From: a virus
Lineage: Duplodnaviria; Caudoviricetes
Direction: 5' to 3' (one strand)
DNA: 64,000 bases
IMG/VR virus record: IMGVR_UViG_3300028048_000040
Coordinates: 278,329-342,328 of that record
The notes beneath the pieces were generated by a model that saw only the letters and a list, made by a program, of their open reading frames with translations, did not search any database and had not been told where the DNA came from. Below, in pieces: positions 20,003-30,221 of the stretch; positions within the stretch are counted from its first letter, which is position 1, and each line of letters starts with the position of its first letter. The position numbers and the translations under genes were made by a program.

Positions 20003-21634
20003 TTACCAAGTTTTACCTAAGATAAACCACAGTCTTCCATTAGCTTTAGCTTCTTCAGACATTCCATCATAACCACCAATACGTCTAGCATAATCAAGAC
20101 GAGCAAACCAATTATTAGGAGCTTTATAGAATGCTCCTACACCCCATCCTAAGAGAGAAGTGTGTTCATTATCACTCTTGCGTAAGCGTACTTCACCACC
20201 ATCTAAATAGCAGCTAAGAGTCAATCCACTGACTGGTGTATACCAACGCAATTCCGCAGTTCCTAAAAATCCTTCATCACCAGAACATTCTCCCTGAGGA
20301 TATGCTCTTACACCTTGAGCACCACCTAAATAGAATCTTTCAGAACTATCTAGATTCTTGCTTGCTAATTGACCCTGTGCTTTAATCAGAATATCAGAGC
20401 TATGACCTAAAGACTGAATAAATGTAAAATCTGCATTTCCTTTAGTAAATCCACCAGAGAAATGGTTAACACTATCCATTAATTCTGCATCTGCTGAATC
20501 GGTTCCCATAACACCATGAGTTAATATCACATTATAACAGAATGATGATTTCTGATGTTGGTTTATAGAACCAGATAATCCTATATATCCAGAATGGGAA
20601 TGTCGGTCACTATCCCAATTTGGACTTGTGATACTATCTTCCAAAGATCTATAATTATATCCATACAAAATATCTAAATTTTTCTTAGAAGTTTTATAGA
20701 TAGGAGTTTTACCATATACAGATATAGTATTTGCTTTACCCTCCATACCAACAGATGCTAAATATGAATCCAAATCATAATTCATATGGCTAAGACCAAT
20801 ACCAATAGTAGAACTGCTTCTTCCAACATTCATCTCATAAGACATATAATAGTTCTGCATGAGTTTATTGGAAATAGAAGTTCCTATTCTAAGTAAATCC
20901 CCCTTATGACTGATATTGTTTATAGTTTCTTGAGCAGCATACTGATATCTACCAGAATACTTGCTTCCATAGTTACTTACATAAGCAATACCTTCATGCT
21001 TTTTATGGTCTCTTATGTTTATAACAATATCACTAGTACCTTTATCAGTACCAGGAGATAGAACAGTAGATGCTTTTACTCCAGGAAGATTATTTAGATT
21101 ATGAATAGTAGTTTCCAAAGAAGTTGTTTTTATAATATCTCCAGAATGAAGACCTTTTGAAATACGTTCAGCTACATCATTATCAAGTTTAGACTCATTG
21201 TTTAATGTTATATTACCATATCTACCTGGAAGAATTGCAATCTTTATAGTAGAATGAATTATTTCTTGCTCAGGTACATATACCATAGCAGCAGGATATC
21301 CATTGTTACGAAGATATAGTGACATCTTCTTAGTCATTTCATTAAAATTATTTAAAGTGACAGTTTTCTTAACGTAAGTCTGAGCTATTTCTAATAACTT
21401 TTCTTCATTGAAAGATAAACCACCTTTATCAACCAATTCCACTTTATGAAGATAGAAACTAGGTGTCTCTTTAGATTCATGGGTATTAATAATTTCCCCA
21501 TTATTAATAACAGGTGTCTCTTTAGATGATGGTACATTTACCACCGGATCCTTTAATGCTGTTGCAGCATTACACTCTAATGGTGTCAATAATATTAACG
21601 TAGTGATAGCTGCCTTTGAAAGTTGTTTCTTCAT
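20003..21634 (-). CDS. TpsB/ShlB/FhaC/HecB-family outer-membrane transporter (Omp85 superfamily)
   Basis: Signal peptide, POTRA-like segments (YLRNNGYPAA.VYVPEQEI; LNNLPGV), SNYGSKYSG, LDSSERFYLGGAQGVRAY loop-6 motif, terminal aromatic residue (GKTW). Confidence 0.92.
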   Translation of the reverse strand: MKKQLSKAAITTLILLTPLECNAATALKDPVVNVPSSKETPVINNGEIINTHESKETPSFYLHKVELVDKGGLSFNEEKLLEIAQTYVKKTVTLNNFNEMTKKMSLYLRNNGYPAAMVYVPEQEIIHSTIKIAILPGRYGNITLNNESKLDNDVAERISKGLHSGDIIKTTSLETTIHNLNNLPGVKASTVLSPGTDKGTSDIVINIRDHKKHEGIAYVSNYGSKYSGRYQYAAQETINNISHKGDLLRIGTSISNKLMQNYYMSYEMNVGRSSSTIGIGLSHMNYDLDSYLASVGMEGKANTISVYGKTPIYKTSKKNLDILYGYNYRSLEDSITSPNWDSDRHSHSGYIGLSGSINQHQKSSFCYNVILTHGVMGTDSADAELMDSVNHFSGGFTKGNADFTFIQSLGHSSDILIKAQGQLASKNLDSSERFYLGGAQGVRAYPQGECSGDEGFLGTAELRWYTPVSGLTLSCYLDGGEVRLRKSDNEHTSLLGWGVGAFYKAPNNWFARLDYARRIGGYDGMSEEAKANGRLWFILGKTW

Positions 21635-25601: not shown

Positions 25602-25667
25602 CAGAAAAGTTACCAGAGTACCTAATTGGTACTCTGGTATCAATTTTTGCAAAGTAAAAAATTTTTC

Positions 25668-25834
25668 AGTTATATACCATTCCTATGAGTATAAGTCTGA
25701 GGAAGGAATAGATAAAATGATATTTTTGAAGAGGGTTCAAAATTTTAGTTATATACTATTCTATTGAGGTGAGTCTGAGGGAGGAATAGTCAAAATGAAT
25801 ATCTTTCTTTTTTTATAAATATATTATATATATG
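25668..25834 (+). promoter_or_regulatory. Three tandem early-type promoters, the first two in an imperfect direct repeat of about 52 bp
   Basis: ATATAYYAT-N5-TG at 25672, 25751 and 25819; shared AGTCTGAGGRAGGAATAG after the first two. Confidence 0.75.
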
Positions 25835-25856
25835 AATAAAGAAAGGAGGAATTAAG

Positions 25857-25916
25857 ATGGAAGATGAAAGCATTGATATTGGACTTTGGGATGTTGATGA
25901 TTTTGAGGAGGAATAA
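25857..25916 (+). CDS. 19-aa acidic micropeptide MEDESIDIGLWDVDDFEEE
   Basis: AAAGGAGG SD, triple promoter upstream, paralogous to the next ORF. Confidence 0.75.
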   Translation: MEDESIDIGLWDVDDFEEE

Positions 25917-25918
25917 AA

Positions 25919-25999
25919 ATGGAACTAGAGATTGTAGAAGATAGTGAATTTGACGTTGGTTTATGGAGTGATGATGAATTTGAAACTGATGAAGAATAA
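25919..25999 (+). CDS. 26-aa acidic micropeptide MELEIVEDSEFDVGLWSDDEFETDEE
   Basis: GAGGAGG SD inside the previous ORF; terminator follows. Confidence 0.75.
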   Translation: MELEIVEDSEFDVGLWSDDEFETDEE

Positions 26000-26024
26000 A
26001 TATCAGTTTCAAATTCAAAAAATA

Positions 26025-26055
26025 ATAGAACAGGAATAACTCCTGTTCTATTTTT
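26025..26055 (+). terminator. Terminator of the micropeptide unit
   Basis: TAGAACAGGA/TCCTGTTCTA followed by a T-run. Confidence 0.8.
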
Positions 26056-26097
26056 CTGCAGAAACAATATGATAAGAAAAAATCTTAATTTATAGGA

Positions 26098-27855
26098 GTG
26101 TTGAATATGCAAAATTCTAAAAAACCAGTAAAACATTTAAAACTAGAACCATTGGATGCTAATAAGTTTATTAAAGTAAATAAACTAAAGGTTATTACTA
26201 ATCCAGTTTATTTTGATAGAACTGGCATTCCTACTCCAGATGGTTTACTCTCTAATGAAATCTTTGGTGTTACATCCAATGATAGAACAGAGATATTTGC
26301 ATATATACCATTAGCAGGTGAATCTTTTTTACATCCATTAGCATATAAAACCTGGTGTAGATTAGATTCTAATGTTAAGATGTGTGTATTTGAATTAGAT
26401 ACTTTTAGATTAGATAAAGAAACAGGAAAACTAGTACCAGATCCTAATGGTGGTACTGGTCTTAAATTTTTGAAAAAGATAATTAAAGATGTGGATTTTA
26501 AGAGAACTCAATCTCTAAAGAGAGAAGTTAAGATTAATTTCTTAGAGACCTATAAAGACAAACTCTTTATGGATAATCTCATTGTTATGCCTGCAGGATA
26601 TAGAGATGTTAATACAGAACAATCTAGAATGGGTGTAGGTGAGATTAATAAGTTATATGATAACGTCTTAAGAGATGTAAATGCTCTTAAAGAATCAGAA
26701 GATTATGGTCTTTCTATGAATGGAGCACTTAGAGGAAGAATCCAAGAAGGATTAGTTGCTATTTATGATTGGATTTGTTTTGGTAGATTTAATGGAGTAG
26801 ATTCTCCTGCTACAGGTCTATCTAGAAAACTAGGTCTTATTCGTAGAGCTGGTATGAGAAGAACATTTGACTGGGGTGCTAGACTTGTTATTTGTTCACA
26901 GAATTTAAGAGTAGAATCTCTAGATGATCTAGAAATAGATACAGATTCTATTGGATTACCATTAGCAGCATTATGTGCCAACTTCTATCCATATATGATC
27001 TATCATATTAGACAATTCTTTGAAAATAACTTCTCATCTGTTAAATATATGCAAGTTATGTATATGAGTGAAAAGGATAAATCTAAACCACCATTCTATG
27101 CAGATATTATTAGTTGGAGAGAAGAATTCTCTGACGAAAGAATTAAGAAAGAACTAGATAGATTCATGCATGGTTCTTCTAATAGATTTGTTCCTATAGA
27201 ATTGCCTATACCTTCTCAATATGAAAGAATGGGTAATAGACAATACAAAGCATATATTAAATTCAGAGGTAGACAAGTAACAACTAAAGAAGCAGCTGAA
27301 GCATTGGCTAAAGGAACAGAATTTAACTTTGAATCATTGCCTCTTGTTCTTAGACCTCTTACATGGGCAGATATAATTTATATGGCTGCAAAAGAGATAG
27401 TCAAAGATAAGATGACTCTTATCACTCGTTATCCTATGGATTCTTATTGGAATCAATTTCCTGCTAGAATAGTAGTCTTATCTACTATTGAAACTGAACC
27501 AATGATAATAAATGGCAAACTATATAAAAAGTATCCAAAGATTAGAAAGTCTGATATTTTAAAGAATAGTTCAAATAAATGGATAGATGTTGCTACACCA
27601 AATAATGCTAGACTTGGAACATTTGGAGCTGACTTTGATGGAGATACAATCAGTTCTAAAACTCCCTTCTCAATTGAAGCAAATAAGGAATTATATGATA
27701 TTACTAATAGTAAAATGAATTACATTGGTCTTACTGGTATTAATGAAATTACCACTTCTAAAGAAGGATTACAAGCTCTTTATAATCTTACTTTAGTATT
27801 ACCAGAAGATAAAGATAAAATGACTAAACTTACATTAGCTGACTTTGGTTATTAA
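26098..27855 (+). CDS. Phage multisubunit RNA polymerase beta-prime subunit (catalytic; probably virion RNAP)
   Basis: DGLLSNEIFG, VMPAGYRD, RYP and GADFDGD catalytic motif; preceded by late-type promoter at 26063. Confidence 0.92.
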   Translation: MLNMQNSKKPVKHLKLEPLDANKFIKVNKLKVITNPVYFDRTGIPTPDGLLSNEIFGVTSNDRTEIFAYIPLAGESFLHPLAYKTWCRLDSNVKMCVFELDTFRLDKETGKLVPDPNGGTGLKFLKKIIKDVDFKRTQSLKREVKINFLETYKDKLFMDNLIVMPAGYRDVNTEQSRMGVGEINKLYDNVLRDVNALKESEDYGLSMNGALRGRIQEGLVAIYDWICFGRFNGVDSPATGLSRKLGLIRRAGMRRTFDWGARLVICSQNLRVESLDDLEIDTDSIGLPLAALCANFYPYMIYHIRQFFENNFSSVKYMQVMYMSEKDKSKPPFYADIISWREEFSDERIKKELDRFMHGSSNRFVPIELPIPSQYERMGNRQYKAYIKFRGRQVTTKEAAEALAKGTEFNFESLPLVLRPLTWADIIYMAAKEIVKDKMTLITRYPMDSYWNQFPARIVVLSTIETEPMIINGKLYKKYPKIRKSDILKNSSNKWIDVATPNNARLGTFGADFDGDTISSKTPFSIEANKELYDITNSKMNYIGLTGINEITTSKEGLQALYNLTLVLPEDKDKMTKLTLADFGY

Positions 27856-27916
27856 TCACATTCAAGTAAATCAATATTATGCTTAATCTTTTAATTAGAG
27901 AGGAGAGCTTAGAGTC

Positions 27917-30208: not shown

Positions 30209-30221
30209 AACATATTGATAA
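30209..30221 (+). promoter_or_regulatory. Late-type phage promoter HACA-N6-TAR (representative of 21 copies)
   Basis: Copies at 1587, 2664, 7205, 10034, 10797, 22244, 26063, 27857, 30209, 35117, 35876, 40997, 45630, 45737, 47888, 48324, 48925, 50593, 53726, 57164, 59083. Confidence 0.8.

Follow-up and report, generated by a model that had tools for sequence, protein, structure and literature searches.

A candidate early micropeptide cassette beside an RNA polymerase gene in a clade of AR9-like jumbo phages

What is a unit with three early-type promoters doing in front of two open reading frames (ORFs) of 19 and 26 amino acids (aa), in the gap before a gene for a subunit of RNA polymerase (RNAP)? 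The locus lies in the final 64 kb of a virus record of 342,328 bp (IMGVR_UViG_3300028048_000040; 31.6% G+C); this stretch of 64,000 nucleotides is the window analysed here, and the promoters, micro-ORFs and terminator are referred to together as the cassette. A sequence-only reading had taken the cassette for a very highly expressed, immediate-early effector. The comparative evidence partly supports this interpretation, which appears to be right in outline: the unit is predicted to be early and strongly expressed, and its peptide seems to be under selection. We consider it probable that the micro-ORFs are translated and that their function resides in the peptide. Our fuller proposal is tentative, possible rather than probable: the peptides may form an undescribed family (9-26 aa, with a core of ~11 residues) that would be expressed by the virion RNAP and would serve as titrating decoys of a host hub or defence protein, in the course of an arms race.

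The gene 3' of the cassette encodes the N-terminal part of a split RNAP β' subunit (phrog_2986, E 6.5e-75 in a profile search). A protein search with this β' led to a large clade of phages, uncultured and 250-350 kb in size, and the DNA around β' was examined in 14 of those phages and at 80 IMG/VR loci. Gene order was conserved, with genes of ~650, 54 and ~103 aa followed by β'. The cassette is more than a chance arrangement, because it recurs in 12 other phage loci at the syntenic site, the gap between the ~103-aa late gene and β'. It was present in every fetched phage with a β' 64-90% identical to that of the window. In every locus an early-type promoter lies 23-61 nt 5' of the ORF, and the leaders begin GAAUAA, GAAUAU, GAAGAU or GAGUAA and contain AAGGAGG. 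A distant locus, L054 (β' 42% identical), has the same site, promoter and leader (GAGUAAUAGGAAAGGAGG), here with the peptide MWDEPLVIGIPIEESDEDDE.

All elements listed by the sequence-only reading, namely two micro-ORFs each led by a Shine–Dalgarno (SD) sequence and then a terminator, are in the DNA (Table 1), and the two ORFs share a motif with differing synonymous positions as it had described. They arose by a 62-nt duplication that included the SD and ATG (repeat D3) and is confined to this phage; over aligned codons they are 68% identical in nucleotides. Compared with the ORF of the related locus L021, ORF2 is 74% identical and ORF1 63%. ORF2 is closer to the single-copy ORFs and keeps their 3' hairpin, and is therefore likely to be the orthologue of the relatives' single ORF, with ORF1 as the extra, duplicated copy.

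The proposal that selection acts on the peptide gained support from the substitution pattern and from the retention of SD and ATG in 13/13 loci. In eight MDD-type ORFs, the first 11 codons differ 60, 71 and 150 times at codon positions 1, 2 and 3 respectively. Of the changes between loci L007 and L019, five are synonymous and two non-synonymous; between L001 and L005 one serine is retained although its codon changed from TCC to AGC, and seven of the nine replacements are within a chemical class. Most replacements overall stay within the classes I/V/L/A, D/E or W/Y/F, and L021 has the sole indel of the ORF alignment, a gap of 6 nt that preserves the frame. At the same time the ORF evolves fast. 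Within the clade at 88-100% identity (the close clade below), the micro-ORF is 63-77% identical in nucleotides vs 93-96% for the first 900 nt of β', and hardly any change is seen in the non-coding blocks by the ORF, which are the P3 region, the terminator and the late promoter. Divergence thus rises several-fold above that of the neighbours within about 60 nt, with the chemical pattern of the peptide kept.

The conserved unit is not the one that was first put forward. The motif D-[IV]-G-L-W-x-x-D-[DE]-F-E shared by ORF1 and ORF2 turns out to be a local version of a more general N-terminal 11-mer, M-D-D-[ST]-[DE]-[IV]-I-x-G-[ILV]-[WFY], joined to an acidic tail with Phe. It is the 11-mer that is constant: after an acidic start come three to four residues that are aliphatic or beta-branched, then Gly (present in 11 of the 13 peptides), one more aliphatic residue and an aromatic one (Pro in L054). 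The tail with Phe is confined to the close clade (L054 has an acidic tail without Phe), and more distant forms are tail-less and only 9-13 aa long, for example MDDSDIIIGIF and MDDTDIIVVAY. The suggestion of a nucleic-acid mimic is therefore unlikely to hold for the whole family, as the acidic Phe tail is missing from these short forms. A different derivation, from the C-terminal strand of the ~103-aa upstream protein, was rejected, the likeness being that of generic beta-strands. In three closely related phages a second strong SD and ATG (MKYII...) stands before the MDD ORF (L002 2783-2857, L018 991-1071 and L007 1271-1348); this start shares the frame of the MDD ORF in L002, whereas in L018 and L007 it opens a different frame that runs across the full length of that ORF.

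Searches beyond the syntenic site added little. A DNA search of a phage collection with the locus gave no match, nor did a tblastn search of phage records with the 26-aa peptide. The first-described motif, as a degenerate DNA pattern, had 0 matches in IMG/VR, and in other proteins of the phage it gave chance matches only. A pattern of SD plus MDD.. in IMG/VR returned the known relative only, the remaining matches being N-termini of long proteins, and a pattern of promoter, SD and M[DE] in JGI metagenomes returned one extra copy, identical to the L001 ORF, among longer genes. Family searches yielded sub-threshold noise in Rfam, nothing in Pfam or the PDB, and one unrelated sub-threshold match in PHROGs (E 0.19). 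Apparent micro-ORFs 5' of β' in L079, L083 and L085 (MDEAVDKV etc.) were dropped, as they are antisense to a minus-strand gene. A second small early family, with the motif TEQG[DN][MLF]GLG, was seen behind early-type promoters in several related phages; its members lie at genome position 232880 (51 aa), at 230902 in G001 (39 aa), and in L103 and L104 (46 aa).

How firm is the early assignment? Promoters were scored with a position-weight matrix derived from the motif copies of this genome, at a threshold of at least 15 bits and with ten Markov shuffles for comparison. The 342-kb genome holds 91 such sites vs 0-2 per shuffle (about 0.5), and a score equal to that of P3, the weakest of the three (19.1 bits), was reached ~0.1 times per shuffled genome. 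The consensus of the matrix is GTAAA-N10-TTTTAG-NNA-TATAYTAT-N5-TG. Its TATAYTAT-N6-G part, to which P1, P2 and P3 all conform, is identical to the AR9 early consensus AAATATATATTAT-N6-G(+1), which is used by the injected virion RNAP (Lavysh et al. 2017, PMC5312081). All three stacked promoters noted by the sequence-only reading are thus in the DNA and, by motif match, are of the virion-RNAP class. Its statement that the window has no second locus with three is correct if sites up to 250 nt apart are counted as linked. Genome-wide there is one other cluster (four sites, genome 125309-125629, minus strand), and it has terminators between its units; the cassette is the sole place in the genome with three early sites stacked and no intervening terminator.

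The surroundings are of the other class. A late-type motif, (A)ACA-N6-TAA, precedes β' (26063-26075), the next gene (27858-27869) and a head-protein-like gene (30209-30221), and all relatives read, the most distant at 42% identity, have ACA-N6-TAA 5' of β'; the AR9 late consensus is AACA-N6-TA/G (PMC5312081). Because early motifs are found here and late-type motifs on the neighbouring genes, the cassette appears to be an early unit inside a late, structural region. By the same token, β' is probably a subunit of the virion RNAP since it seems to be driven by a late promoter. An intrinsic terminator that is conserved in the relatives closes the cassette, and it still folded in all 12 cassette transcripts when the stop region was masked as ribosome-covered. 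With a ribosome-independent terminator and a late promoter downstream, the early unit is predicted to be autonomous.

Of the three promoters, P3 would be the ancestral one, because every locus has a promoter and leader of that type; an orthologous P3-type promoter is present in 12/12 relatives. In the phage of the window P3 yields a 23-nt leader starting GAAUAAAGAAAGGAGG. P1 and P2 sit in a tandem module of two 79-nt repeats, each containing GTTATATAC(C/T)AT, and this module exists in three genome copies at 83-91% identity; the other two, at 125515-125675 (minus strand) and 218928-219088 (plus strand), are 90-91% identical to that of the cassette. Recombination seems to have spread it as a portable block of strong promoters. 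The copy at 219 kb drives a 58-aa ORF (MNKETILYT...), and that at 125.6 kb a short ORF-less unit with a terminator at its end. The region around the latter, genome 125250-125690 (minus strand), has four early-type promoters in 320 nt, and two units there of ~65-100 nt, ORF-less and terminator-ended, are candidate early small RNAs. Between the module and P3 there is a mini-ORF, MNIFLFL; four close relatives share the DNA block ATGAAYATCTTTCTTTTTTTAT here without change, the ORF itself being 7 or 14 aa long. Its SD and ATG are probably a remnant brought by the promoter module, which carries a gene start in the 219-kb copy, and the T-run in the block is probably an upstream element of P3.

Promoter number varies: there are three early promoters per cassette in this phage and in L021, two in L001 and L005, and one in the distant clade. 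The add-on promoters of this phage and L021 are unrelated sequences, which argues for separate gains in at least these two lineages. As promoters and, here, the gene have been amplified repeatedly, the amount of product seems to matter, and a stoichiometric binder would fit such amplification better than a catalyst or a switch.

One feature of the cassette concerns the RNA. The 5' arm of a perfectly complementary hairpin (inverted repeat I2) is made of the last codons of ORF2 and its loop holds the stop codon (ΔG -19.2 kcal/mol, z -7.1). The test applied to such structures required at least 9 bp, a ΔG of -10 kcal/mol or lower, a 5' arm formed by the last codons, and a stop placed in or beside the loop; it replaced a looser one that flagged 42% of ordinary genes. 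The hairpins of 8 of the 12 terminal micro-ORFs passed vs 14 of 325 ordinary genes of this genome, and in L007, L009 and L019 a weaker or displaced hairpin stands at or just past the stop. The arms differ by phage (GAAACTGAT/ATCAGTTTC here, GGTGAT/ATCACC in L001), so it is the structure that is kept and not the sequence. Our best guess is a protective role: with the hairpin in place, no untranslated stretch of so short an mRNA would stay unpaired between the 3' end and the last ribosome.

The hairpin also opens the way to a different explanation, in which the act of translation matters and not the peptide: the cassette would be a cis device (an mRNA stabilizer, a leader or attenuator, or an arrest peptide) that tunes early read-through into β' or stabilizes a functional RNA. 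A hairpin that encloses or abuts the stop in most loci, with arms that vary, is what such a device might show; the ORF is also rich in Ile and Val codons, as are ilv-type leaders, and the cassette always lies directly 5' of β'. We nevertheless judge this unlikely. No antiterminator alternative was found and a terminator was predicted in every locus with the stop region masked; a conserved late promoter of β' itself lies 3' of the terminator; and the physicochemical pattern is conserved across the whole 11-mer. A classical attenuator was rejected on the persistence of the terminator in 12/12 masked folds together with the late promoter of β'. In exit-tunnel arrest motifs the key residues lie at a fixed distance from the C-terminal, P-site codon. 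Here an aromatic residue occupies position 11 from the N-terminus in 9 of 13 peptides, but 0-10 residues from the C-terminus, so that a ribosome-arrest peptide of the TnaC/SecM type was also rejected, the key residues being fixed relative to the N-terminus.

If the peptide is the product, the following course of events can be proposed. After DNA injection the virion RNAP would start at up to three stacked early promoters and make a short transcript with a strong SD near its 5' end and one or two tiny ORFs. The transcript would end in a hairpin begun inside the last codons and then in the terminator, which would stop early transcription from entering the late virion RNAP β' gene. The functional peptide would have an acidic N-terminus (MDD[ST][DE]) followed by a hydrophobic strand, [IV]I.G[ILV][WFY], beta-branched and with Gly and an aromatic anchor, to which the closest relatives would add an acidic stretch with Phe. 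Early in infection it might fill a peptide-binding, hydrophobic groove of some abundant protein, more likely one of the host than one of the phage, and the peptide sequence would track the variation of the partner. Taken as a whole, this model of a stoichiometric short-linear-motif competitor is plausible and falls just short of being probable. The analysis shows the anatomy of the unit, its promoter class (by homology), the synteny, the pattern of conservation and substitution and the repeated amplification of dosage; that the ORFs are translated, that this happens early, that the peptide binds competitively and what it binds are inferred. The partner may be a defence protein, the docking pocket of a protease, or a hub of replication or repair (the sliding clamp, for example), and any one of these, once named, is improbable at best. 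A complex prediction for the ORF2 stop-to-stop 30-mer (with four extra N-terminal residues, GGIK) and Bacillus subtilis DnaN gave 0.01 vs a mark of 0.34, which counts neither way. Neither a DnaN-type clamp nor a bacterial-type SSB was found in the phage genome itself.

Several observations weigh against the competitor model. The cassette was not found at this site in 74 other IMG/VR relatives, and in phages with a β' 60-62% identical the gap before β' is just 77-150 nt and has no cassette. A matching SD-led ORF was not found in four complete genomes of that 60-62% clade, and a full scan of one of them (290 kb) gave 58 early sites, none with a similar peptide. As it is missing from sister clades, the cassette would be dispensable and accessory, old but patchy in its distribution. 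The stop hairpin suggests selection at the RNA level too, which a peptide model leaves unexplained. Moreover, the Asp codon GAT and the Ile codon ATC are reverse-complementary, so the DD..II pattern may partly reflect RNA palindromes (L002, L007, L008). Finally, peptides of 9-26 aa may be unstable in the cell.

A second alternative keeps the peptide and moves its partner into the phage, as a feedback inhibitor or timer of the virion RNAP, or of another early protein, that sharpens the early-late switch. This would account for the fixed place beside virion RNAP β' in lineages down to 42% β' identity and for early expression signals within a late module, and a highly acidic tail could fill a nucleic-acid channel. 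Neighbourhood alone is weak evidence, sister clades have the same RNAP without the cassette, and the peptide diverges several-fold faster than the adjacent RNAP subunit, which a variable external partner would fit better; we regard an action on the phage's own machinery as improbable.

In streptococcal mature short hydrophobic pheromones, such as DIIIIVGG, aliphatic residues come after an acidic one, and MDDSDIIIGIF and MDDTDIIVVAY resemble them. The peptides could on this basis be cytoplasmic mimics of a mature pheromone for a host receptor of the RRNPP or Rgg type, or a phage-phage signal freed at lysis. No protein of the phage genome had an RNPP_C (PF18768), Rgg C-terminal (TIGR01716) or TPR_12 (PF13424) domain; on the host side, a look for PF18768 in two Selenomonas ruminantium genomes and for TIGR01716 in 61 genomes from the presumed host family was likewise negative. 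The peptides also start MDD or MED, without a basic or hydrophobic export leader, and the long acidic tails of the close clade are unlike a pheromone, all of which makes signalling very unlikely. Just as doubtful is a non-coding early small RNA in which the ORFs are incidental: the transcript is short with structured 3' ends, and several promoter-to-terminator units of the genome lack credible ORFs (for example 125.3-125.6 kb), but 13/13 loci have an ATG and, at ideal spacing, a perfect SD, third codon positions carry an excess of differences, the ORF indel is in frame, amino-acid classes are kept though nucleotides diverge, and no Rfam family matches. A precursor of a ribosomally synthesized and post-translationally modified peptide was rejected, as no radical SAM or PqqD-like domain was found in the phage genome.

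Coordinates of the cassette and of its surroundings are collected in Table 1. On the 5' side a bidirectional terminator, near-identical in L001, L005 and L021, separates the cassette from the upstream late operon. An antisense ORF of 94 aa covers the entire cassette; it is missing or much shorter in relatives except one (78 aa, L021), and it was rejected as a gene because its frame is not conserved among them. In a protein search β' was 30-32% identical to its counterparts in AR9-group jumbo phages of Bacillus, Staphylococcus and Listeria, and the phage appears to be an AR9-like jumbo phage with split multisubunit RNAPs. Phage and host are both uncultured. A TpsB/Omp85-type transporter elsewhere in the window has its best named bacterial relatives, at 43-47% in a protein search, among proteins of Selenomonas ruminantium and other Selenomonadaceae; a search of genome contigs did not find a relative of it. 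One related phage comes from a record labelled gut metagenome. These two observations point to a rumen or gut diderm Firmicute as host, probably a member of the Selenomonadaceae.

Table 1. Features of the cassette and its neighbourhood, in window coordinates, and the peptides of related loci
Feature	Position	Strand	Details
TpsB/Omp85-type transporter	20003-21634	-	homologue clusters carry PF08479, PF03865
Bidirectional terminator hairpin	25611-25639	both	12-bp stem, 6 GC pairs; ends upstream late operon, shields cassette 5' side
Tandem 79-nt promoter module	25643-25800	+	holds P1 and P2; direct repeats D1, D2
P1	core 25673-25680	+	TATACCAT; +1 G 25687; 34.2 bits
P2	core 25752-25759	+	TATACTAT; +1 25766; 31.7 bits
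Mini-ORF MNIFLFL	25795-25818	+	SD upstream; overlaps T-rich element 5' of P3
P3	core 25820-25827	+	TATATTAT; +1 G 25834; 19.1 bits
Antisense ORF, 94 aa (rejected as gene)	25852-26136	-
Micro-ORF 1, 19 aa	25857-25916	+	MEDESIDIGLWDVDDFEEE; SD AAGGAGG 25843-25849, 7 nt from ATG
Micro-ORF 2, 26 aa	25919-25999	+	MELEIVEDSEFDVGLWSDDEFETDEE; SD GAGGAGG 25905-25911, within last codons of ORF1, 7 nt to ATG at 25919
Stop-codon hairpin (I2), 16-17 bp	25975-26017	+	100% complementary; encloses ORF2 stop codon
Intrinsic terminator (I4)	26021-26060	+	hairpin 26021-26055, then T-run; ends early unit
Late-type promoter for β'	26063-26075	+	AACAATATGATAA (AACA-N6-TAA); outside early unit
RNAP β' N-terminal part	26107-27855	+	ADFDGD motif; neighbour of cassette, not a member
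Peptide, L001			MDDSEVIAGVYSEDEFGDDED
Peptide, L002			MDDSDIIIGIWDL
Peptide, L005/L006			MDDTEVIVIAFSDEDFEDDED
Peptide, L007			MDDSDIIIGIF
Peptide, L008			MDDTDIIVVAY
Peptide, L009			M(PM)EDIGVIVY
Peptide, L018			MDDSDIIIGIWNL
Peptide, L019			MDDIEIIIGIF
Peptide, L020			MIIESIYRCDDEDTEVTIGWFDL
Peptide, L021/L022			MDDSEVIIGVWSDDDFEED

ORFs this short are not reported by gene callers, and families of this kind are consequently missing from phage annotation. Synteny, codon-position bias, conservative replacements and repeated amplification make a strong case for a real micro-gene from comparative evidence alone. Were the decoy proposal true, the peptides would be among the smallest phage effectors known, and if the peptide competes for a host protein, the 11-residue core would be a ready-made minimal ligand. 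The stop-enclosing hairpin with its varying arms may in addition offer a clean case in which to study how very short mRNAs are stabilized or how their translation ends.

Among known systems, the early units of AR9 and PBS1 are the nearest in their signals, with the same core motif, the same spacing to the G start and the same division into early and late (AACA-N6-TA) promoters. This phage has an additional upstream element, GTAAA..TTTTAG, and early timing is here predicted from the motif. Some AR9 genes are reported to have two early promoters; three stacked on a micro-ORF were not found described. Leader and arrest peptides (trp, ilv, TnaC, Erm) are likewise encoded by tiny, SD-led, Ile/Val-rich ORFs with a hairpin overlapping the end and a terminator, but the cassette has no antiterminator fold, its downstream gene is self-promoted and the conserved residues are fixed from the N-terminus. 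Two docking motifs of replication proteins were also compared. The clamp-binding motif is QL[SD]LF or QLxLxL (QLVLGL in Pol IV); by sequence inspection the core [IV]-x-[IVA]-G-[ILV]-[WFY] (DIGLW here, LVIGIP in L054) fits its hydrophobic spacing, although the defining Gln is absent and Asp, Glu, Ile or another residue stands in its place. The C-terminal tip of SSB is an acidic run ending [IL]-P-F with a free carboxylate, and the SSB of S. ruminantium, the presumed host, ends PDEEIPF. The close-clade tail is similar in having an aromatic residue, three acidic residues and Phe, but this Phe neither follows a Pro nor stands at the C-terminus; a mimic of the SSB tip was rejected, as the peptides end in acidic residues, I-F or A-Y and lack the Pro.

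The broader comparison is with the small early proteins by which phages take over the host or counter its defences, such as T7 Gp2, Ocr, T4 Stp (26 aa) and the staphylococcal clamp-binding proteins. Unlike these, the peptides described here are of 9-26 aa, are probably unfolded and have no similarity in Pfam, PHROGs or the PDB. In other respects the two are predicted to be alike: the known proteins too are small, often acidic, early and strongly expressed, and their accessory genes evolve fast and have a promoter and a terminator to themselves.

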